Shown here: positions 3,668 through 44,000 of the stretch, piece after piece
How the letters are laid out: every line of letters starts with the position of its first letter
Position numbering within the stretch: position 1 is the first letter of the stretch
Virus record (IMG/VR): IMGVR_UViG_3300047508_000265
Coordinates: 19,127-83,126 of that record
DNA length: 64,000 bases
Strand: one strand, 5' to 3'
Origin: a virus
Notes under the pieces: generated by a model
What the model saw: the letters and a program-made list of their open reading frames with translations, nothing else
Told to the model about the DNA's origin: nothing
The model's database searches: none
Position numbers and translations under genes: made by a program

Positions 3668-6678
<3,011 letters not shown>

Positions 6679-9499: not shown

Positions 9500-10663
9500 T
9501 TAGGCACCAGTACAACCAGTGTCGCCAGGAATCACTGGACCACAGCGTAAGTGACGAATCACATAACCGAGGTCAGGACGCTCTTCTTTTATCCCATACG
9601 CAAATAGCGCACGGAAGAAGCCGATGTTGCCATCGATATTGCAGTCCCGGGACGGGATGTTGCGCCACACGAACTCACCTGCCCACGAATACTGGGCGAG
9701 ATAGGTCATGCCGCCAATGTTGCCCTGAGGCTTGGGAATCAGCACACGAAGAACTTCCTCGTGATAGATTACCGTATCCTCGTAGTCAGCATCTTTGTAG
9801 ACGTCATTAACCAGCCATTTCTGACCGCGAGAAGCACTTGCAGCAGAATACGGATATCTCCGCGCATAGGCGCCGGTCACGATATCGTATCTAGGCGGAA
9901 ACTGCACAGCTTGGAATTTAAAGCCATGGTAAACTTTTCCGCCAAGCCCAGGAGCACCAACCAATACATCAGGTTCGTTAAACGAGAAATACCGGTAGTC
10001 ATTCCTGTTATTGGAACTCAGTTTCTTGAGGTTGTTGAACGTGTAATTCGAGCCAACCGCTGTGTAAACAGCAGTGCCATCATCAACACGCGCAGTAGGT
10101 TTCAAAGTTCCGCCATTATACCCAAGCTCTTGGTGAATTGTTTCAAGCAACTCAAAGCTCAAGGTTGATGTAGGCGGAACAGAAGCGTCAAAGGTTGTCT
10201 CAATCGTAGGCGAGGCGCCTATAGCTGAAACACAATTAGCTGAATGGGCGATTACTTCTGTTTGATAGGTCTGGGACCAAACCCACTTTGAATTCTCGGC
10301 GAGAACTCTAGTTACGTTTTTGATCTGGTCTAGCACCTGCCATTGGAACTTGAAATCATCCAAGCAGATATCTGGACTATTGACGGCAGCTTTCTTCAAA
10401 GCCACGGTCTTCACATCAACAGCGAAACTGTCAATGTTATAGCCAGTGATAGAACATGCGCCGGTACCGATCAGGTTATTACCTGTGGCACCAGTGGCGC
10501 TGAGAGTTGCAAACGACTGGAAGAAATCCGCATCCGTTACCGCTTTCGTGATTAACGATCGCTGATATATTGGGTACGAATATTGATAGCCTTGGCCGTC
10601 AAGCCAAGGTTCCTTCGGCAGTGTTTTAATGTAAAAATCTGAGTCTTGAATTTGGACTGCAAC
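9500..10663 (-). CDS. Major capsid protein, exon 2
   Basis: 387 codons plus stop, downstream of scaffold, portal and TerL; C-terminal GEFVWRNI...CNIDG..GFFRA.F..G; in frame with exon 1 after splicing. Confidence 0.85.
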   Translation of the reverse strand, partial: VAVQIQDSDFYIKTLPKEPWLDGQGYQYSYPIYQRSLITKAVTDADFFQSFATLSATGATGNNLIGTGACSITGYNIDSFAVDVKTVALKKAAVNSPDICLDDFKFQWQVLDQIKNVTRVLAENSKWVWSQTYQTEVIAHSANCVSAIGASPTIETTFDASVPPTSTLSFELLETIHQELGYNGGTLKPTARVDDGTAVYTAVGSNYTFNNLKKLSSNNRNDYRYFSFNEPDVLVGAPGLGGKVYHGFKFQAVQFPPRYDIVTGAYARRYPYSAASASRGQKWLVNDVYKDADYEDTVIYHEEVLRVLIPKPQGNIGGMTYLAQYSWAGEFVWRNIPSRDCNIDGNIGFFRALFAYGIKEERPDLGYVIRHLRCGPVIPGDTGCTGA

Positions 10664-10883
10664 CAATATTGTTACTACCTTTTCAGGCGGCTATGAGCTT
10701 TCGCCATAGCTCTTTGGTTTTATCTATATCCAAAGATCGGACTATATCATCCCTTTCGGGCCCTGCGTATAGTCTCTACGGGGTCATTTACGACTTCCCT
10801 CGGTATTGTCCTTTTCAGGAGTTTCACCGATATAGCAAGGTTTTCCATTTCAGCTATTTCTAACTGAAACGCGACGTTGGTCC
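10664..10883 (-). mobile_element. Group I self-splicing intron (220 nt, no internal ORF) in the MCP gene
   Basis: P1: exon CGAU pairs with GUCG giving U.G at the splice site. P10: CAAC pairs with 3' exon GUUG. P3 CCUUGC/GCAGGG, P4 UCGGU/ACCGA, R element GUAGAGACUA (10779-10770), S element GAUAUAGUCC (10748-10739), terminal G at 10664. Confidence 0.92.
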
Positions 10884-10943
10884 ATCGTTCCGAATTAGCA
10901 TCGAATGATCAAGAAACAGATTTTCTAAAGCAGTACATGCCAT
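10884..10943 (-). CDS. Major capsid protein, exon 1 (MACTALENLFLDHSMLIRND)
   Basis: Exactly 20 codons from ATG at 10943; the unspliced frame hits TAG inside the intron; spliced product is 407 aa. Confidence 0.85.
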
Positions 10944-11143: not shown

Positions 11144-11605
11144 TCAAGAAATTTCTTTATGAGGACAAACGCCATAGTTAGATTTGGCGTTATTGCAATT
11201 GTGGCACAACACTTGAAAGCCTTTAGGAAATTTATTCTTTTTTAACCAACGATAAAAATCAGTTCCCGCTCTTCCATTAGTGTATTTACGTCTATGAGCA
11301 TTGCCCCTTCCTTCTATATGATCAATTACTAAAAATTGAAAGATATCTTCACCACAACAAGCGCATTTAGATGGCGTACCGCCATAATGCTCCAAGCATT
11401 CTTTTCGAAGAGCTTGTTCCCGTTTCTTTTTCTTTGCGATAATCTCTACAGAATGATTACGATACCAGACTTTCCATCCCTTTCGTCTAGATCGTTTCCC
11501 TTTTTCGGACATGTAATATCGACGACTAGCTGCCTTCCCTTTGTCAGAATGGTTGTACCGGTATTCAGTAGCAAGTCGAGCTTCGCGCCGTTCATGAATA
11601 TTCAC
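11144..11605 (-). CDS. HNH homing endonuclease, family B (HYG..CxC...IDHI...FY.WL...FP...LC.NC)
   Basis: IDHI and LCHNCN motifs; basic N-terminus; paralogous to 26850 and 30974. Confidence 0.85.
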   Translation of the reverse strand: MNIHERREARLATEYRYNHSDKGKAASRRYYMSEKGKRSRRKGWKVWYRNHSVEIIAKKKKREQALRKECLEHYGGTPSKCACCGEDIFQFLVIDHIEGRGNAHRRKYTNGRAGTDFYRWLKKNKFPKGFQVLCHNCNNAKSNYGVCPHKEIS

Positions 11606-11612
11606 TATCCTA

Positions 11613-11641
11613 ATATTACCAGATTACTGGTACAATATCAA
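11613..11641 (-). promoter_or_regulatory. Sigma70-like promoter, leaderless for the HNH gene
   Basis: TTGATA, 17 bp, TAATAT, then 7 nt to GTG at 11605. Confidence 0.6.
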
Positions 11642-11646
11642 GATAA

Positions 11647-12939
11647 TTATTGCGGTAAGATATTCGGTAGACTCTTCTTCAATACATCAATGAAGCTCGC
11701 ACTCTCTGCGGGTTTCGCAGAAGCCGGTGCGGGAGCAGGAGGAGCGCCGCCGCCAGCAGGGGGTGTGCCACCACGCAATTTGGTAACCTCTTCCTCTAAG
11801 TCTTGGTTACTTTTGACCAAGTCAGCAACAAGACCGAGAGTCATATCCAAAGCTTCCTTCTTATAAAGAGCCTCGGCGATAGCGCTATTAGGCATACGAG
11901 CAACGTCTACAGCTTGAACTCGTGCAATCGCCTGCTGCATATTTGTATCCCAAGCAGCATCCTTGGTAATGCCAAAGATAGGAATGTTCTGGGCGAGATT
12001 CTTTAGAGTATCCGTGAGTGCGCTCTTCCAATTCGCCTGATATTCCTGCACCGCTTGATCGTTGGCTTGTTTAGCAGTTCGCCTGTTCTCCTCAAGTTTC
12101 TGCATCGCAAACTCAAGAACCTGTTGCTTCTCTACATTCAATCGGTCGTAATCAAGCACAGATCGATCGAACCCAGTCATATCTAGGCGATTAAAGCCCG
12201 CGGATAATTCGGACAATTTATCGCTTCTTACAGTTTGATCGGGCTCCATCAACGCCGAACGCAATTCAGTAGGATCGATCTTATATTTAGTAGAATACGC
12301 CTTGAAGCTGTTCTCGACAGTCTCAAGCGGCTTGGCGATCTTGTTCTGGAACTCTTCAGTATTCTGATAATCTACAATCGACAAGCGTTTCTCATAATCA
12401 TTTACTTTGTCTTGGAGTAGTTTGACCTCGGCTTCATTTACCGGCGGAGCTTGTGACGCCGAAGAAAGCTTCTGTTCCGCCTCGGCAAGTTTCGCCTCTG
12501 AATCTTTCAGATTTCTTCGAAGAATCTTAAACGCCGTTCCCGCAGCGACCGTCATCTTGCTCTGGGCAGCATCTAACTGTGCTTCTGTGGGAGCCGCCGC
12601 TGTCGCACCGGTGGCGCCAGTTTCAGCCGTAGGACCGGTAGCGCCCGTATCAGCCGCTGCTGTCGCACCGGTAGCAGCCGTATCACCTGTCGCACCAGTC
12701 TCTGCAGTAGCTCCTGTGGCCGCGGTATCGCCTGTAGCGCCGGTCGGAGCCGGTTCTGCAGCCGCTGTAGCGCCGGTAGCACCAGTGTCAGCAGCCGCTG
12801 TAGCGCCGGTTGGAGCCGGTTCGTTTTCTAAATTTCCTTTTGCTGGCAGGGCTTCTGGCGGAATAACGCCTCCTGGGTAAGCTGCTGCTAAAGCGGCTTC
12901 GAATGATGTAACGGCGGTATTTGTGACGGGTTCGGGCAT
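11647..12939 (-). CDS. Capsid scaffolding protein with TGAT-rich N-terminal repeats
   Basis: Lies between portal and MCP; acidic/coiled-coil body, Pro/Ala linker and short C-terminal helix. Confidence 0.7.
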   Translation of the reverse strand: MPEPVTNTAVTSFEAALAAAYPGGVIPPEALPAKGNLENEPAPTGATAAADTGATGATAAAEPAPTGATGDTAATGATAETGATGDTAATGATAAADTGATGPTAETGATGATAAAPTEAQLDAAQSKMTVAAGTAFKILRRNLKDSEAKLAEAEQKLSSASQAPPVNEAEVKLLQDKVNDYEKRLSIVDYQNTEEFQNKIAKPLETVENSFKAYSTKYKIDPTELRSALMEPDQTVRSDKLSELSAGFNRLDMTGFDRSVLDYDRLNVEKQQVLEFAMQKLEENRRTAKQANDQAVQEYQANWKSALTDTLKNLAQNIPIFGITKDAAWDTNMQQAIARVQAVDVARMPNSAIAEALYKKEALDMTLGLVADLVKSNQDLEEEVTKLRGGTPPAGGGAPPAPAPASAKPAESASFIDVLKKSLPNILPQ

Positions 12940-13475: not shown

Positions 13476-15719
13476 CTACGCAGTTTGTTTAGCTTGTCCA
13501 CTAACTTTTTGAGCCGCGGCGGCGTCCGCTAACGCTCGCGCCTGCGCTGCCGTAGCCGCCTTCTCTTTCATAGTTGATTGATGAAGTTCTTCTCGATGCC
13601 GTATCTTCTGACTGTGCTCCTCTTGGGATTGACGGAGATTCTGAGCATGCTCATTCTCAGCCGCTTGAGAAGCAGGATCGGGCGGAGGAGGTTGAGTCGC
13701 AGCTTTAATCTGATCTTTCATCGCCTGCCGCTTGGCCCTATCGTCCGCTGCAGAAGTGCGCTCGGCTAAATTATTAAATTTCCTAGTCAACTCAGCAACT
13801 AACTTCTCCTGCAATTTATCCGGTTTCAAAAGCTGCATATGCTGCGCGGAATGTTTCGTCTTCAATATCGCCACCTGCAAAAGTTGCGGGGTGGCCTGAC
13901 CCTGTTCAAGTTGAACTAAGTCGTTCTCCAAACTGGGTAAATGCGCCTGTAGATGAAGAATATGATGATCGTTGGGCATGACCGACATAGGAACACCATT
14001 ACTCATTGCGACATTTTGGAGTTCGGCAATCTCGGCATCAAGCGGAGTCCGGCCATTCATTTGAATTGAAGGAACAAATTCGTCTACTTGTGCGTATCCT
14101 ACCTTTTGAGCAAACTTAGCACGAAGCAAATTATTCTGGCCCACTGGATCAAGGGAACCCCAATAATCCATAAAGTCATCGAACGCAGCCTCTCTCGCTG
14201 CGGGCGAACCATACCCAACTGCACGATAAGGTTCCACCCAAGAAGTGAGATCCATTAGCATGACTTCAGGAACGCCTCGCCTCATACATCTTTCTCTATA
14301 GGCGAAAACTTGTATGCCTCCAGGATCGTTTTGCTTTAGCTTTGGATTTTTAACTCGCCGCCATACCTCGTTCAGGTGGCGCTTCCATGGCTGATAGAAA
14401 AGATTCAAGGACGCTGTTGGAAGAACTGACTCCTCGGCGATATCCGCTCGCTTCTCGAATTTGGTTTTTCTCTGATCGCCACTTTGCTTCTGATTTACAT
14501 TAGGCTGCTGATCCTGCAGCAACATAGACATGTCCTGAATAATTGGAAGCATGCTATCAGATGGATTCTGAAGTTTTGTCTGAACCACATTAACCTCAGG
14601 TGGGATATAGACCACACCACCGTACCAAATCAAAGCCATATCCTCCGCCTCAGTAGCTGACTTAGGCTGAATAATCATGCTACCCGCCAATCGAGCGTTA
14701 TCTACCGATTGATTACGAACTGTGTTAAGAACCTGTGCTTCGGGATACCTTTCATGAGCTAGGCCCCTGACGGAATGCAACTGACCGTTGGTCCCAACCT
14801 CGTAAGGAAAAAAGTTGAAACATTGATTAACGTTCTCGAACCGATTTTCGTACTTGAATAAGTAGTCTTCATTATCGCCAAGGCGCAAAGTTAAGTAATA
14901 GGAAACTTTCCCGGAATATTCTTTCACCCAGCAGTGAGCTAACTTCACATACTCATTCGCCTTTGTAGCTGCAAAAATGTCGTTATTTTTAAGAATCGTT
15001 TCCCACTTTTCCCATTCTCCCTGCGACCAAACTGCCTGCTGATTGTACGCCTTTAATATCGCCTTATAAACTTCCGGCCTGTTCCAACGCTTATCTCCGG
15101 GATCGCTTTGCATACACCATTGATAAAGAGTAGATACTGTAACCTCTCGAAATGCTACAGCGATATCTACTTCCTCTTCAGCAAGTGTAGTTCCGCGAGC
15201 CATCTTAAAGTCCTCCATACCCGCAACTCGCCACTGCCAATTCAAGTCGTCCTGAAAATACAGAAATCCCATACCATGAGTAACAAATTTCTGAACAAGC
15301 AATTGATGGTACGTTTCAAAAGACGACCAATCCTTTAACATCTTATGAAATTCTTCCGACATGACGGAACACCACTCTGATCGCTTAGTGGGATCAACGT
15401 CCATGTTAGAATTCACACGAGCCAATACTGGAACTGATTCAGTTAGATCATAATAAGATACACACTCTCGTTTTACTCTACGCTTAAGATCAAGGAAGTT
15501 TAAGTTAGCACGACCTTCTTGTCCCGAATCTCGCATATACTGTTCATCATATGGCGCCTTGCCATCAACTGCAGCCTGTATGTCCTGTCGCTGCAAGGCA
15601 GAAATTAAATCCAACTCAACAATCTTCTTGACAATATTGTTAAGAGACCCAACATCGGCGATACGCGTTTTAGGGGCTTTGCCGGTTTCTGTTATTTGAG
15701 CGAAGTTAAAATCTGCGAT
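13476..15719 (-). CDS. Portal protein; start probably non-canonical (ATC 15719) upstream of the track's TTG 15614
   Basis: About 750 aa directly downstream of TerL/HNH, C-terminal DHHILH..AH and coiled tail; frame is open a further 35 codons upstream to ATC preceded by GGAAGG. Confidence 0.75.
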   Translation of the reverse strand: MADFNFAQITETGKAPKTRIADVGSLNNIVKKIVELDLISALQRQDIQAAVDGKAPYDEQYMRDSGQEGRANLNFLDLKRRVKRECVSYYDLTESVPVLARVNSNMDVDPTKRSEWCSVMSEEFHKMLKDWSSFETYHQLLVQKFVTHGMGFLYFQDDLNWQWRVAGMEDFKMARGTTLAEEEVDIAVAFREVTVSTLYQWCMQSDPGDKRWNRPEVYKAILKAYNQQAVWSQGEWEKWETILKNNDIFAATKANEYVKLAHCWVKEYSGKVSYYLTLRLGDNEDYLFKYENRFENVNQCFNFFPYEVGTNGQLHSVRGLAHERYPEAQVLNTVRNQSVDNARLAGSMIIQPKSATEAEDMALIWYGGVVYIPPEVNVVQTKLQNPSDSMLPIIQDMSMLLQDQQPNVNQKQSGDQRKTKFEKRADIAEESVLPTASLNLFYQPWKRHLNEVWRRVKNPKLKQNDPGGIQVFAYRERCMRRGVPEVMLMDLTSWVEPYRAVGYGSPAAREAAFDDFMDYWGSLDPVGQNNLLRAKFAQKVGYAQVDEFVPSIQMNGRTPLDAEIAELQNVAMSNGVPMSVMPNDHHILHLQAHLPSLENDLVQLEQGQATPQLLQVAILKTKHSAQHMQLLKPDKLQEKLVAELTRKFNNLAERTSAADDRAKRQAMKDQIKAATQPPPPDPASQAAENEHAQNLRQSQEEHSQKIRHREELHQSTMKEKAATAAQARALADAAAAQKVSGQAKQTA

Positions 15720-16173
15720 AAAAATCCCTTCCTTTAATTAGATTATCTCGGGCCCAAAGCGGCTGGGTATTGGTATAATGAAAGGCAGCTTTCTGACCAG
15801 CTAATGTAGTAAGGTCAAATTTACAAATTGGGATTTTGTGGTCAATGTGCCATTCACCATAATTTGTCCAAGACATCCCAGGAACAAACTGTCGCTCAAG
15901 AAAAGTTTTGTAAAAGTGATAAGAACAGCCCAACAACTCCTTAGTATGCCCCATTTTCAGTAATCCAGATACCGCTCTTCGCACACGTTCACGACAACTA
16001 TGTCGTAACTTAACTAAAGGTTTTTGTTTATATTTTCGACAAGCCGCTTTATGCTTTTCTGGATTAGCTAACTGCCAGCATTTACGGTATCCTTTAAATT
16101 CTTCAGGATGTCCTAATGCCCATAAATACTTGTACATTCTTCTTTCCAAATCAGTTAACTTGGCCATGATCAA
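15706..16173 (-). CDS. HNH/EndoVII-like homing endonuclease
   Basis: LLGCS...LERQF..GMSW.NYGEWHIDHKIP...FDL...AFHYTNTQPLWA.DN. Confidence 0.85.
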   Translation of the reverse strand: MIMAKLTDLERRMYKYLWALGHPEEFKGYRKCWQLANPEKHKAACRKYKQKPLVKLRHSCRERVRRAVSGLLKMGHTKELLGCSYHFYKTFLERQFVPGMSWTNYGEWHIDHKIPICKFDLTTLAGQKAAFHYTNTQPLWARDNLIKGRDFYRRF

Positions 16174-18999: not shown

Positions 19000-19189
19000 G
19001 GCTTACAGGAAGCAGACAGGTTGGGGGAAGGGTGACGTCCAGAGGCCCCGACAAATTAGTAGAAAAGAGTTCGAGGATAACTGGGATTTGATAGACTGGG
19101 GAAAAGTACCAAGACGATCACAAAGCTTTCTTAAATCTTCTCATGCGCCCGCGGAATCAGATGCATTTCGAAGAGCGACAGGCAAATGA
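18977..19189 (+). CDS. Hypothetical protein
   Basis: GKGD..RP.......DNWD.I motif; coupled to the next gene. Confidence 0.55.
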   Translation: MDDQGEYRAYRKQTGWGKGDVQRPRQISRKEFEDNWDLIDWGKVPRRSQSFLKSSHAPAESDAFRRATGK

Positions 19190-22083: not shown

Positions 22084-22571
22084 AAACTCCTTTAAAAATT
22101 CTAGAAAAGAATAAACGCTGGCGACTGCGGCATCCGGTTCAAGTAAAAGCAATAAACCAAAGCTATTATTCAAAAAATTCTAGAAAAATAAAAGCCAAGG
22201 TTCGTAGATACAAAAAACAAAACAAAAAGAAAGTAAACGCATCCAACAAAAAATGGCGAGCAAAGAACAAAACAAAAGTAAAAGAAATAGGCCGAAAATA
22301 CTACTTAAAACACCCCGATAAGGCAAGAACAAATTGCGTTAAAAGACGAGCCTTAAAACGAAAAGCTACAATTGGTGATTTAACAGAAATCGCCAAAATT
22401 TACGCCCGCGCCAGAGAGCTTAGACAATGGTTTAATGTCGTAGTTGATCATAAAATTCCTCTTTCAAAAGGCGGGGCGCATTCACCCGAAAATTTACAAA
22501 TTATTTACGCTTACGAAAACGCTCAAAAACACAACAGTTTAACTTATAAACCTAAAATAATTTTCAAATGA
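22080..22571 (+). CDS. HNH homing endonuclease, family A (VDH..PL.KGGAHS.ENLQIIY...IFK)
   Basis: HNH motif; C-terminus nearly identical to 28777 and 39447. Confidence 0.9.
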   Translation: MKTPLKILEKNKRWRLRHPVQVKAINQSYYSKNSRKIKAKVRRYKKQNKKKVNASNKKWRAKNKTKVKEIGRKYYLKHPDKARTNCVKRRALKRKATIGDLTEIAKIYARARELRQWFNVVVDHKIPLSKGGAHSPENLQIIYAYENAQKHNSLTYKPKIIFK

Positions 22572-26849: not shown

Positions 26850-27194
26850 ATGTATTACAAAAGTAAAAAATTTTACAAGACACGGAAACGTTATGCTAAA
26901 ACGCATCGAGTCGAGCTACGAATTAAGCAACGTCAATATAATAGAAAACTAAAAGAAGATATATTTAATCATTATGGAATCGAATGCGCTCACTGTAAAT
27001 TTTCTGATTTACGAGCTTTATCTATCGATCATATTAACGGGGGCGGCACTCAACATAGAAAAAAGTTTAAAAGTCCCTACTCTTTTTACATATGGTTGCG
27101 ACAAAATAAATTTCCAAAAGGGTTTCAAACTCTTTGTATGAATTGCCAATTTATCAAACGACATACAAACAACGAAAGTACCCGAATAAAATGA
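26850..27194 (+). CDS. HNH homing endonuclease, family B
   Basis: HYGIECAHC...IDHINGGG...FYIWL...FPKGFQTLCMNC. Confidence 0.85.
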   Translation: MYYKSKKFYKTRKRYAKTHRVELRIKQRQYNRKLKEDIFNHYGIECAHCKFSDLRALSIDHINGGGTQHRKKFKSPYSFYIWLRQNKFPKGFQTLCMNCQFIKRHTNNESTRIK

Positions 27195-28776: not shown

Positions 28777-29217
28777 ATGGGTTCCTCAATTAAATACTAC
28801 AAAGAGCATCCAGAAAAACGTCGTGAACATATGCGACAATGGAGAGCTAACCGTCCGGGCTATAAATCTGCAGAAGGAAAATTATATCGTAAACGGTACC
28901 CTGAAAAAGCTAGATTATCTTGTCGAAAAAATTATCAAAAGCACAAACAAGAGAGAATTCAAAAAGGCGCCATTCATGCCAGAACTTATAGAGCCAGAAA
29001 ACATGGCGCAACTATAGGAAACGCAAAAGACATCCTAAAAATTTATAACCGAGCGAAAGAACTGCGGCAATCTGGGTTTGATGTAGCCGTTGATCACATT
29101 TTCCCGCTTTCAAAGGGAGGAGCGCATTCTGTGGAAAATCTTCAAATAATTTACTCTTTTGAAAACTCTCAAAAAGGCGATCGGCTTAATTACATACCTT
29201 CTATTATTTTCAAATGA
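28777..29217 (+). CDS. HNH homing endonuclease, family A
   Basis: VDHIFPLSKGGAHSVENLQIIY. Confidence 0.9.
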   Translation: MGSSIKYYKEHPEKRREHMRQWRANRPGYKSAEGKLYRKRYPEKARLSCRKNYQKHKQERIQKGAIHARTYRARKHGATIGNAKDILKIYNRAKELRQSGFDVAVDHIFPLSKGGAHSVENLQIIYSFENSQKGDRLNYIPSIIFK

Positions 29218-30977
29218 TCACTTACGATTTTGACTACGAGACCTACTACGATCGTGATTTTTCAGTTAAGACCCTTGGAAATTGGATGTATACTCACGAC
29301 GAACGTTTCGATGCTTATCTTCTCACTGTTGAAGGCGACAACGGTTACGAGTGGGCAGGGAATCCAAAAGAATTTGATTGGGAAAGATTCAATGGACAAA
29401 TCGGAGTAGCGCACAATGCAGGATTTGACTTCGCGGTAACAGAACGGCTAAAGGAATTAGGCATCGCGCCAGCTTTTACATGGGCAGAACTTTATGACAC
29501 TGCTGACCTTGCAGCCTATCTCGGCTACCCACGGAGTTTAGCTTCCGCATCTTTTCATCTTCTAGGCGTCAGTCTTAGCAAGGAAATACGCGACAAGGCT
29601 AAAGGAAAGCATTGGAATGAAATGACGCCTGAATTCCAGAAACAAATGCTCGCCTATGGCAAGAATGACTCCAAAATTGGGCTACGTCTTTGGAAAGAGC
29701 ATGGGCACAAGATGCCACAATGGGAACGCGAGCTATCCAGATTGACGAGAGAAATGTGCTGGCGGGGAGTTCCTACAGACCCAGCAAAAGTCAAGGCAGC
29801 TATCACAAATCTTGAGACCCGCTTGATCACAGCACGGTCGTTGATTCCATGGGTTAAGGATAATCCAGAGGCGCCAGTATTGTCATTGAAGCAAGCAGGA
29901 CTGGAAGCTCGCAAGCACGGCGTAGCACCGCCAAAGTCGTTTGCGAAAGATAGTGAGGAATTTGCAGAATGGGTTACGCAATACGGCGAAAAATTTCCAT
30001 GGGCCCGCGGGCTAGGGGAATATCGCAGCGTTAACATGTTGCTCCAAAAACTAATTACACTCAAAGAAAGAACAGATTCGTCTGGCGTATTCCGTTATGG
30101 ATTAAAATACTTTGGGGCGCATACAGGCAGAGACAGTGGTGACTCCGGTTTCAATCCACAAAATTTGGCAAGAAAACCGATGTTTGGGGTTGATGTTAGA
30201 GGATGCGTTATTACCGCTCCAAAAGGATATATTTTAGGAATCGCAGACGAGGCCGCTATTCAACCTAAAATAGTAACTCTTTTTTCAAAAGACAAAGAAA
30301 TTTTGGATCTTCTGCACAAAGGGCAAGATATTTATGAGGCCCAAGCTAGAATATCTCATGGTTACACAAATCCTGAGCCTCTAAAAGAGAGCGATCCCGA
30401 CTTCCGCAAACATATGAAAGTCGAGTTATTGGGCTGCATGTTTGGTGCTGGCGCCGCAAAAGTACAAATTATCGCCAAACAACAGGTAGGACTGGATATC
30501 TCCTTCTCCGAGGCAGAGAAGATTGTAAACACCTTTCGCAAAAGAAAATTTATTCCAAATTTATGGAAGCATCTTGAATCGCAAATAGCAAAATCTGCTC
30601 CAGGAGACTGGGAACTTGAACTGCCCTCAGGCAGAATAATGAACTACCGAAATGTACGAAGCTTTGGGAACACCAGTGCCGAAATTCCACGACTAGGAAA
30701 AATGCTGCGAGTAAAATTATGGGGTGGCACATTATGCGAAAATTTAGCCCAAGCGGTAGAACGAGATATAGTAATGTGGCATGTTCTTCAAATAGTTAGT
30801 GCTGGATTTCAAATTCTGCTAAGAGCGCACGATGAATTAGTCCTATTATTAAAAGAATCCGAAGCAGAAACAAAATTAGCAGAAGCTCTTGCTATAATGA
30901 GTCAGCCTCCGCCATGGCTTAAAGAATTTCCTGCTGGAGCAGAAGGGCAACTTAGCAAATCCTATAAGAAAATATGA
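29214..30977 (+). CDS. polA: Family A DNA polymerase with 3'-5' exonuclease
   Basis: ExoI DYET, ExoII HNAGFD, HTGR.SG, motif A DEAAIQPK (atypical), motif B R...K...LG..FG, motif C HDE. Confidence 0.92.
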   Translation: MITYDFDYETYYDRDFSVKTLGNWMYTHDERFDAYLLTVEGDNGYEWAGNPKEFDWERFNGQIGVAHNAGFDFAVTERLKELGIAPAFTWAELYDTADLAAYLGYPRSLASASFHLLGVSLSKEIRDKAKGKHWNEMTPEFQKQMLAYGKNDSKIGLRLWKEHGHKMPQWERELSRLTREMCWRGVPTDPAKVKAAITNLETRLITARSLIPWVKDNPEAPVLSLKQAGLEARKHGVAPPKSFAKDSEEFAEWVTQYGEKFPWARGLGEYRSVNMLLQKLITLKERTDSSGVFRYGLKYFGAHTGRDSGDSGFNPQNLARKPMFGVDVRGCVITAPKGYILGIADEAAIQPKIVTLFSKDKEILDLLHKGQDIYEAQARISHGYTNPEPLKESDPDFRKHMKVELLGCMFGAGAAKVQIIAKQQVGLDISFSEAEKIVNTFRKRKFIPNLWKHLESQIAKSAPGDWELELPSGRIMNYRNVRSFGNTSAEIPRLGKMLRVKLWGGTLCENLAQAVERDIVMWHVLQIVSAGFQILLRAHDELVLLLKESEAETKLAEALAIMSQPPPWLKEFPAGAEGQLSKSYKKI

Positions 30978-31273
30978 GGGCCCGCGATCAAGCATATGTG
31001 GATAAAATCTTCAATCACTACGGACGGAAATGCATCTGTTGTGACGAAGATGAAATACGTTTCCTAACGATTGATCATATCAACAACGACGGAAATAAAC
31101 ACAGAAGGAACTTCAAACAATACACCGGCGCCGCATTTTATCGTTGGATTGTGAAGATGGGATTTCCAAACGATCTTCAAATCCTATGTGCTAATTGTAA
31201 TTCAGGCAAACATCGTAATGGCGGTATATGCCCGCACCAAACAAAAGCGGCCAAAGAAATCGAGGAAGGGTAG
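30974..31273 (+). CDS. HNH homing endonuclease, family B (short N-terminus)
   Basis: HYGRKCICC...IDHINNDG...LCANCN...CPH. Confidence 0.85.
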   Translation: MRARDQAYVDKIFNHYGRKCICCDEDEIRFLTIDHINNDGNKHRRNFKQYTGAAFYRWIVKMGFPNDLQILCANCNSGKHRNGGICPHQTKAAKEIEEG

Positions 31274-39466: not shown

Positions 39467-39938
39467 AATTATTTATTCGCTTTTATGGGGTTTAGTTTTT
39501 CCTGAAAAAAGGAAAGTGATTCTTCATAAGTATAATATTTCGGATAAAAGAAAAGCGGTAACGAGACGATATGCACAATCTGAGCGCGGAAAACAAACTA
39601 TTACAGCTTATAACAATTCATCTCAAGGTAAGAACAATAGACGGCGAGCCAAACGAAAATACAAACGGTCTGAAAAGGGCCGACTAAAGAATTGTGTTCA
39701 TGCTGCAAAACGTAATGCTCTGAAGAGGTGTCGTACGGTTGGTGATCTTTTTGCTATAGAAAAGGTTTACGCTCGTGCGCAAGAGCTTCGACAATGGTTT
39801 GATGTTGTAGTTGATCATATTGTTCCTCTTGCTAAAGGCGGCGCCCATTCTCCAGAAAATTTGCAGATTATTTATGCTTTTGAAAATGAACGCAAGGGAG
39901 CCCGCTTAGATTATAAGCCACGAGTTATTTTCAAATGA
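39447..39938 (+). CDS. HNH homing endonuclease, family A
   Basis: VDHIVPLAKGGAHSPENLQIIY; exact start uncertain. Confidence 0.88.
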   Translation: MTETNAKIIYSLLWGLVFPEKRKVILHKYNISDKRKAVTRRYAQSERGKQTITAYNNSSQGKNNRRRAKRKYKRSEKGRLKNCVHAAKRNALKRCRTVGDLFAIEKVYARAQELRQWFDVVVDHIVPLAKGGAHSPENLQIIYAFENERKGARLDYKPRVIFK

Positions 39939-43927: not shown

Positions 43928-44000
43928 TCGGGTTGGCAAGATTCGAACTTGCGATCTGATGCTCCCAAGGCATCCGCGCTGGCCGCTACGCTACAACCCG
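43928..44000 (-). tRNA. tRNA-Pro (anticodon UGG), CCA not encoded
   Basis: Acceptor CGGGUUG/CAACCCG, anticodon stem GAUGC/GCAUC with loop CUUGGGA, T-arm GCAAG-UUCGAAU-CUUGC. Confidence 0.93.

Follow-up and report, generated by a model that had tools for sequence, protein, structure and literature searches.

Group I introns have been documented in capsid genes of tailed phages. The major capsid gene of mycobacteriophage LittleE (Cluster J) carries one, proven by reverse transcription-polymerase chain reaction and N-terminal sequencing, and the same publication (PMC3706429) cites an intron in a capsid gene of lactococcal phage Tuc2009. Gut "Jug" jumbo phages have introns of ~206 nt without an open reading frame (ORF), about 18 per genome, and splicing is supported by reads for 37 of 76 predicted introns in three genomes paired with metatranscriptomes (PMC12880540). 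In collaborative homing, an ORF-less intron is combined with a free-standing endonuclease that targets the insertion site, e.g. psbA/F-CphI of cyanophage S-PM2 and the T7-like DNA polymerase introns (PMC3984707). The present case is a 220-nt insert that interrupts the major capsid gene of a soil phage that has not been cultured, at positions 10883..10664 (minus strand) of a 64,000-nt stretch of DNA (positions 19,127 to 83,126 of IMG/VR record IMGVR_UViG_3300047508_000265; hereafter the window). The insert appears, with a probability of about 90%, to be a functional, spliced group I intron. What the analysis shows is the insertion, its boundaries against intron-less alleles, a structure that covaries, the guide logic and which protein the host gene encodes; catalysis, efficiency and independence of cofactors are predicted from these.

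The window intron resembles that of LittleE in several respects. In both cases the interrupted gene is the virion gene with the highest expression in a tailed phage, U is the last base of exon 1 and G that of the intron, close relatives carry the intron only sporadically, many free-standing HNH genes are present in the genome, and a related copy is found in another structural gene (the BAKA tail gene in the case of LittleE). The LittleE intron, however, is 819 bp long, has a LAGLIDADG-type ORF, is located at the border of the delta domain and the mature capsid and is RNA-proven, whereas the window intron has 220 nt and no ORF, lies after codon 20 of an N4-like capsid gene with a separate scaffold gene, and its splicing is predicted. 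The "Jug" introns are alike in size, in having no ORF, in interrupting essential genes (terL and nrdD) and in the presence of many stand-alone HNH genes. This likeness is one of description, not of sequence, and ~18 introns per "Jug" genome contrast with one in the 83-kb genome of the window phage, in its capsid gene. A first-pass annotation of the window had implied that an intron of this kind is rare; this was overstated, since capsid-gene introns are documented (LittleE and Tuc2009; PMC3706429) and small ORF-less phage introns are abundant (PMC12880540). The window intron is well supported, and group I introns in phage capsid genes are already known. What is new is a compact ribozyme that lies under the Rfam default threshold, a set of corrected capsid annotations, and a natural series of re-aimed guides.

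The interrupted gene is arranged as follows (R1 is a covariance model described below):

10884..10943, minus strand: exon 1 of the major capsid gene, ATG at 10943 plus 19 codons, MACTALENLFLDHSMLIRND
10664..10883, minus strand: predicted ORF-less group I intron, 220 nt; Rfam RF00028 40.5 bits, R1 237 bits; not in intron-less homologues
9500..10663, minus strand: exon 2 of the major capsid gene, from VAVQIQ... up to the stop codon; GUUG at its start takes part in P10

The intron interrupts the gene between codons 20 and 21; it starts GGACCAACGUCGC and ends AUAUUG, the terminal G being position 10664. The ORF given by the gene caller begins at TTG 10666 and has 388 aa (P0001). That an ATG at 10943 opens a 20-codon exon upstream of this ORF, as the first-pass annotation had stated, was confirmed by reading the minus strand. 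The unspliced exon-1 frame was also correctly described as stopping inside the intron: it continues GPTSRFS and meets a TAG at 10862..10860, which results in a 27-aa ORF (10860..10943).

Intron-less homologues define the junction. The exon-2 protein has 155 homologues in a first search and 464 by profile. About 80 intron-less homologues start MACTALENLFLDHAMLIRND|VAV(Q/S)IQ, which is the predicted join. Close homologues of 405–411 aa start MACTALENLFLDHAMLIRNDVAV(Q/S)IQDSDFYIK, i.e. exon 1 plus exon 2 joined at D20|V21, and the homologue P0008 shares the exact ...LDHSMLIRNDVAVQIQ of the window. The in-frame join IRND|VAVQIQ proposed at first pass matches the N-terminus of these homologues residue for residue, and the alignment it had recommended shows that homologues do carry a counterpart of exon 1. 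At the DNA level the intron-less locus L001 reads AGGAACGAT|GTGGCAGTT uninterrupted, and likewise L003, L004 and L016. The intron and exon 2 both start with G, leaving an ambiguity of one base in the splice point; this is resolved by the group I rules that the exon ends in U and the intron in G. Of 86 related capsid loci, only the window and a single further contig carry the insert.

Six exon-1 residues (E7, L9, F10, L16, R18 and N19) do not vary among 21 homologues, the most distant of which is 52% identical. Because of these invariant residues, exon 1 is considered to be constrained coding sequence and not a chance ORF. Between 19 and 20 of the 20 exon-1 residues of the window are the same as in intron-less relatives. 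Eight N-terminally short capsid clusters were also encountered, seven starting at M15 (P0011, P0020, P0027, P0035, P0038, P0040 and P0066) and one at V23 (P0014). These may be further intron alleles or sites, or artefacts of contig ends or gene calling.

The helices read out in the insert, from its 5′ end, are:

10872..10883, minus strand: internal guide, 8-nt 5′ segment GGACCAAC followed by GUCG (3′ strand of P1)
10846..10871, minus strand: P2 hairpin, 11 bp, GAAA loop; all 11 pairs altered on both sides across the family
10835..10840, minus strand: P3 5′ strand CCUUGC, 6 bp; pairs with GCAGGG at 10766..10761
10800..10830, minus strand: P4-P5 domain; P4 UCGGUG/UACCGA, A-rich J4/5, P5 UCCU/AGGA with GAAA loop
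10780..10799, minus strand: P6/P6a, GGG-AA-GUC ... GAC-CCC; 98–100% paired across the family
10770..10779, minus strand: R element GUAGAGACUA, J6/7 plus P7 5′ strand, bulged A
10761..10766, minus strand: P3 3′ strand GCAGGG; pairs with CCUUGC
10751..10760, minus strand: P8, minimal 3-bp hairpin CCC-GAAA-GGG; no P7.1/P7.2 ahead of it
10739..10748, minus strand: S element GAUAUAGUCC, J8/7 plus P7 3′ strand
10736..10711, minus strand: P9, 7 bp
10710..10690, minus strand: P9.1, 8 bp, GAAA loop, conserved 1-nt bulge
10688..10677, minus strand: P9.2, 4 bp, GAAA loop

The insert displays the features of a group I core, i.e. the P3-P8 pseudoknot, the P4-P6 and P3-P7-P8 domains, and P7 strands of the R/S type. 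Helix lengths are 11 bp for P2, 6 each for P3 and P4, 4 for P5, 3+3 for P6/P6a, 6 for P7 (with the bulged A) and 3 for P8, and GAAA caps five hairpins (P2, P5, P8, P9.1 and P9.2). The 5′ end of the intron reads GGAC-CAAC-GUCG. GUCG pairs with CGAU, the last four bases of exon 1 (10887..10884) and the 5′ strand of P1, with a U.G at the cut. CAAC, which is directly 5′ of the P1 strand, pairs with GUUG at the start of exon 2 (P10). The pairing of the guide with both exons, the R and S elements (10779..10770 and 10748..10739) and the terminal G at 10664 are thus as first described. The absence of P5abc and P7.1 had been noted as well, and the compactness claimed on that basis is borne out: neither P5abc nor P7.1/P7.2 is among the helices read out in the window intron, and the 3′ strand of P3 leads directly into the 3-bp P8. 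At the position of P8, relatives have longer stems or ORF insertions. The peripheral elements present are P2, P6a and P9.1/P9.2. The fold z-score of the insert is –5.9, with 0 of 200 shuffles as good, and a 24-nt core word occurs once in the window versus 0.00 expected in shuffled sequence.

A local search with Rfam RF00028 (permissive filters) gives 40.5 bits (E = 6.7e-9; genome-wide E = 2.2e-10), and the alignment places P3, P4, P5, P6, P7 and P8 at high posterior probability. The curated gathering score of this family is 50 bits, an operational database criterion and not a biological defining feature. The default whole-window Rfam scan does not list the intron and gives one tRNA only. Among peripheral elements that distinguish subgroups, P7.1/P7.2 marks IA and P5abc marks IC1; covariance models for the individual group I subtypes (Selles Vidal et al. 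2025) are cited in PMC12880540.

A covariance model, termed R1, was built from the window intron and two close relatives. It gives a single match in the window, which is also the only one in the complete genome of 83,126 bp, no match in 81 intron-less capsid loci (475 kb in total), and about two dozen relatives in other viral contigs. Several of the relatives pass the Rfam gathering score: L054 (R1 113.5 bits; RF00028 86.3 and 61.9 bits), L008 (R1 86 bits; RF00028 75 bits) and Pseudomonas phage PA28 (R1 42 bits; RF00028 59.8 bits). Since these relatives are linked by R1, the family is tied to bona fide group I introns. PA28 (OM234793) is the sole cultured phage with a BLASTN match to the window intron, confined to the P4-P5 core. 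Its intron (L060:1449-1677, OM234793.1 about 14167-14395) is unannotated and interrupts the large terminase gene of this T7-like phage. It differs from the window intron in interrupting terL, in being followed by a 180-aa ORF with a GIY-YIG-like motif (by eye), and in its diverged peripheral helices.

Covariation was assessed in 25 distinct members. Standard pairs occupy 85.1% of the pair cells; in shuffles the figure is 58.5%, and none of 500 comes up to 85.1%. Pairing falls to 35–42% when the partners are slid by 1–3 columns, and 51 of the 60 pairs display changes on both sides. P4 is 100% and P5 93% paired across the family, with compensatory changes in both; P9, P9.1 and P9.2 (spanning 10677..10736) are 85–97% paired, with both-side changes in every pair. 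In the model-fitted alignment P3 and P7 were paired at 62% and 28%, values that are artefacts of mis-registration, and both were re-extracted with sequence anchors. P3 then shows eight different, perfectly complementary sequences in ten introns, and P7 shows an A-U to G-C switch, with two pairs swapped at once in L054. When the helices of the window, L002 and L005 introns were written out and checked, many compensatory changes were found. The full group I core that the first-pass annotation had seen in these 220 nt is therefore both present and covarying.

Two related introns show how the guide follows the insertion site. The first, in contig L002 (positions 3765-3984; IMGVR_UViG_3300047471_000466), has 220 nt and is 77% identical to the window intron, and the capsid protein is 83% identical. 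It lies 16 nt upstream of the window site, after the second base of codon M15. Its guide, AAAUCAGU-GUGGC, pairs with GCCAU, where exon 1 of L002 ends (U.G at the cut), and with GUUGAUU, where exon 2 of L002 starts (P10 of 7 bp), and the predicted junction is confirmed by intron-less homologues. The database protein of this locus (P0004/P0005) is shortened to 392 aa.

The second, in contig L005 (positions 10192-10414; IMGVR_UViG_3300047408_000046), has 223 nt, is 74–79% identical, and is located close to the 3′ end of another capsid gene, one of the N4-gp56 family. The guide is CAACUUGG-GUCGC, with P1 GCGAU/GUCGC and a P10 of 4 bp, and the predicted junction is KSD|PTNRF. This matches the intron-less proteins P0271, P0272, P0275 and P0302, which read ...CDKPDKSDPTNRFITAGLKTYW...SKSAYAG. 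The L005 intron has no in-frame stop, so that ORF finding continues through it and gives a spurious 411-aa protein whose C-terminus is wrong. This naive frame is ruled out, as close intron-less homologues follow the frame predicted by the guide. The 34-aa L005 exon-2 peptide gave no BLASTP match to a 25%-identical capsid protein, and MAFFT misplaced it. For the window, L002 and L005, precise excision restores the reading frame as judged by comparison, i.e. all three joins equal those of intron-less homologues.

A third relative, of 210 nt (L008:75-284), has P1 AGUGAU/GUCACU and P10 CUAC/GUAG, and excision leaves the frame ...FFSD|LHYGH... open. The interrupted gene looks nuclease-like: by eye, the sequence at this join resembles the metal-binding motif of Mre11/SbcD-type phosphoesterases. 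If so, the intron would have entered a block of conserved active-site codons, as is typical of such insertions. There are thus four sites with four guides, each matched to its own exons with U.G at the cut, and two of the junctions (L002 and L005) are verified independently by homology. The four matching guides are strong evidence, at the level of sequence, that P1 and P10 would be functional; if they are, it follows that these four introns would splice.

It should be noted that a 151-nt soil contig from run X4, which covers window positions 10745-10875, has a related intron after ...AUUCGUAACGAU, with the 5′ 8-nt segment AAACUGAU. It appears to be at the same insertion site as the window intron, and hints at a variant with another P10 guide. 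Two viral contigs are rich in introns of this type: L051 (IMGVR_UViG_3300050506_000184) has 8 R1 matches in 8.7 kb, and L056 (IMGVR_UViG_3300025073_000050) has 6 in 6.3 kb. Some of these matches are back to back with very short exons in between.

The host protein shows no match in Pfam, PHROGs, profile searches of PDB sequences, or tblastn against 50,697 phage records. Its identity comes from structure prediction. The AlphaFold model of P0008, which is 82% identical to the window protein, has a predicted local distance difference test score (pLDDT) of 88.9 and a predicted template modelling score of 0.86; it needed an alignment of 130 diverse relatives, 21 sequences giving a pLDDT of 32.5. The top Foldseek matches in PDB are the capsids of N4, Moo19 and DEV (E-values down to 3.5e-10, probability 1.00, ~410 columns), and those in BFVD are major capsid proteins, including one named "N4-gp56 family". 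The modelled fold thus identifies the host gene as that of an HK97-fold (N4 gp56-like) major capsid protein, closest to phage N4, which bears out what the first-pass annotation had assumed. The predicted spliced product has 407 residues. In the model, residues 4–26 form a single N-terminal helix, which would place the splice junction inside the N-arm helix.

Several distant capsid homologues (P0122, P0134, P0185, P0219, P0220, P0238, P0243 and P0249; loci L107/L113) have an extra ~70–150 residues near positions 283–287, with two matched stretches each. The corresponding ~300-nt extra stretch in L107/L113 was considered as an intron of the window type and rejected, as R1 does not match either locus. 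It is probably a domain insertion.

The proposed mechanism is as follows. The late transcript would fold into the P3-P8 core flanked by P2 and P9/P9.1/P9.2, and the guide GUCG would pair with the exon-1 end CGAU (P1, U.G at the cut). An external guanosine bound in P7 would attack after U10884. CAAC would then pair with the exon-2 start GUUG (P10), the terminal G10664 would enter the G site, and the exons would be ligated to ...AACGAU|GUUGCA.... The unspliced RNA would give the 27-residue peptide only, and a start at TTG 10666 would lose the conserved first 20 residues; for these two reasons virion production should depend on splicing.

Several points weigh against a spliced group I intron. No RNA sequencing run was found to contain the intron sequence, and excision and ligation are therefore predicted. 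With 40.5 bits against a gathering score of 50, the RF00028 match from the Infernal search proposed at first pass is significant but falls under the cut-off, and the RF00028 alignment misplaces P1 and P9. P1 and P10 of the window copy are both 4 bp only, shorter than in relatives. The fold of the host protein was modelled on an 82%-identical homologue, not on the spliced window protein itself.

The alternative that survives best is a genuine group I intron that is excised in vivo but cannot splice unaided, and for its folding needs a phage or host protein (an RNA chaperone, or possibly the adjacent HNH protein as a maturase) or ongoing translation. Certain homing endonucleases also act as maturases, and translation is required by T4 introns in vivo. 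The short P1 and P10 (4 bp each) and the 3-bp P8 of the window copy would agree with such a need, as would an HNH gene 260 nt upstream. However, the five GAAA tetraloops and the three additional hairpins at the 3′ end point to a tertiary structure that stabilises itself, and related introns are found beside unrelated HNH families (28% identity, or another Pfam family). In addition, ~206-nt introns of other phages are spliced in metatranscriptomes, a study in which protein independence is not addressed (PMC12880540). A dependent intron is on balance improbable.

Considerably less probable is a decayed, non-splicing remnant, in which case the capsid gene would be a pseudogene in a defective genome or would give a truncated protein from TTG 10666. 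This would account for the automatic gene call at that TTG (P0001) and for the sub-threshold Rfam score. Against it, the helices are all intact, and most of their differences from relatives are compensatory, a sign of selection on structure; moreover, exon 1 is intact and in frame with exon 2 after excision. The first 20 residues, conserved to 52% overall identity, begin the N-arm helix of the model. The phage genome (83,126 bp, with direct terminal repeats) is complete and abundant in its sample (assembly depth 21x). An assembly chimera or another type of insertion, such as an insertion sequence element, group II intron, intein or translational bypass element, is a generic alternative for metagenomic insertions with nothing specific in its favor, and is hardly credible given that a contig in DNA runs of a second soil study is identical to the window across the 3′ splice site, a 77%-identical intron is present in the orthologous gene of an independent IMG/VR contig, in-frame stops argue against an intein, there is neither an ORF nor terminal inverted repeats, and the core matches group I and no other Rfam family. 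Reads of four soil DNA runs were also placed on the window, and gave fragments only and no joints; run X1 is probably the source sample of the window phage.

Preference for a functional, spliced group I intron has consequences for annotation. The capsid protein is shortened by gene callers to 388 instead of 407 aa in the window and to 392 aa in L002, and is falsely extended to 411 aa in L005, and all three introns are missed by the Rfam default threshold. For soil viromes, capsid annotations would be corrected by a dedicated model of the R1 type. If the most abundant phage protein is made only after splicing, a ribozyme that works fast and efficiently is needed in the late stage of infection. 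The 220-nt ribozyme and the guides of its relatives, fitted to four exon contexts, form a natural data set on target-site change, and the window intron could serve as a compact scaffold for ribozyme engineering.

The mobility of the intron may be connected with the HNH genes of the phage:

11144..11605, minus strand: free-standing HNH endonuclease gene, 153 aa; phrog_2255, E = 1.3e-5; between the scaffold-like gene and exon 1
26853-27158, 30935-31240, 22188-22520, 28792-29193 and 39504-39908, plus strand: further HNH paralogues (tblastn), in the replication-gene region

L002 has a homologous HNH gene at the same place (28% identity, E = 1e-11), and L005 has an unrelated one (PF14279/PF01844) directly upstream, at 11340..11999. 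The intron-less loci L001, L003 and L004 have no HNH gene at that place. Intron-less L016, however, has two, one 43% identical to that of the window, and L037/L038 have one; a strict association of HNH gene and intron was therefore rejected. An HNH gene is found at the site in 2 of 2 intron-bearing loci versus roughly 3 of ~26 intron-less loci with enough upstream sequence. The association is suggestive, and the intergenic spot may simply be a landing site for HNH genes. As in the known collaborative homing systems, the window, L002 and L005 have an ORF-less intron and a free-standing endonuclease gene beside the interrupted gene. They differ in that homologous HNH genes occur at the same intergenic place in intron-less relatives too. 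From its adjacency, the window HNH gene is put forward as a possible mobility partner of the intron.

The tandem HNH genes of L016 (positions 1709-2839) display a further feature. The first ends ...AAAEMLKSKLDGALPR, a near-duplicate of the scaffold C-terminus ...TAAEMLKAKLEGVLPK just upstream. This looks like a footprint left when an endonuclease gene was inserted together with a copy of the 3′ end of the scaffold gene.

A broader reading would join these elements. A compact, ORF-less intron lineage would be colonising capsid genes of N4-like soil phages, with a 12–13-nt guide that is re-aimed to new U|N sites, two of them 16 nt apart and a third in an N4-gp56 capsid gene. Entry would be by reverse splicing into short targets (CGAU, GCGAU, GCCAU and GUGAU), and the HNH gene upstream of the capsid gene in all three intron-bearing loci would drive or retain the intron by collaborative homing. 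The re-tuned guides at nearby sites would fit reverse splicing into short targets ending in AU. With all its parts taken together, this reading is tentative and rather unlikely to hold as a whole.

Other features of the window are:

11647..12939, minus strand: gene of a scaffold-like protein, 430 aa; directly upstream of the capsid gene in related loci too
15706-16173, minus strand: endonuclease VII-like ORF, 155 aa; phrog_1035, E = 1.8e-12; between the 604-aa and 712-aa genes
43928-44000, minus strand: tRNA gene; Rfam 67.1 bits, the sole RNA family above threshold in the window

The gene order is two large unannotated genes (604 and 712 aa), then the scaffold-like gene, the capsid gene and tail fibre genes. 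From its position and composition, the coiled, repeat-rich product of 11647..12939 would be a scaffold-like protein, which supports a portal-scaffold-capsid gene order. By position, the 604-aa and 712-aa genes are likely to be the terminase and portal genes. The endonuclease VII-like ORF between them is possibly another free-standing homing endonuclease.

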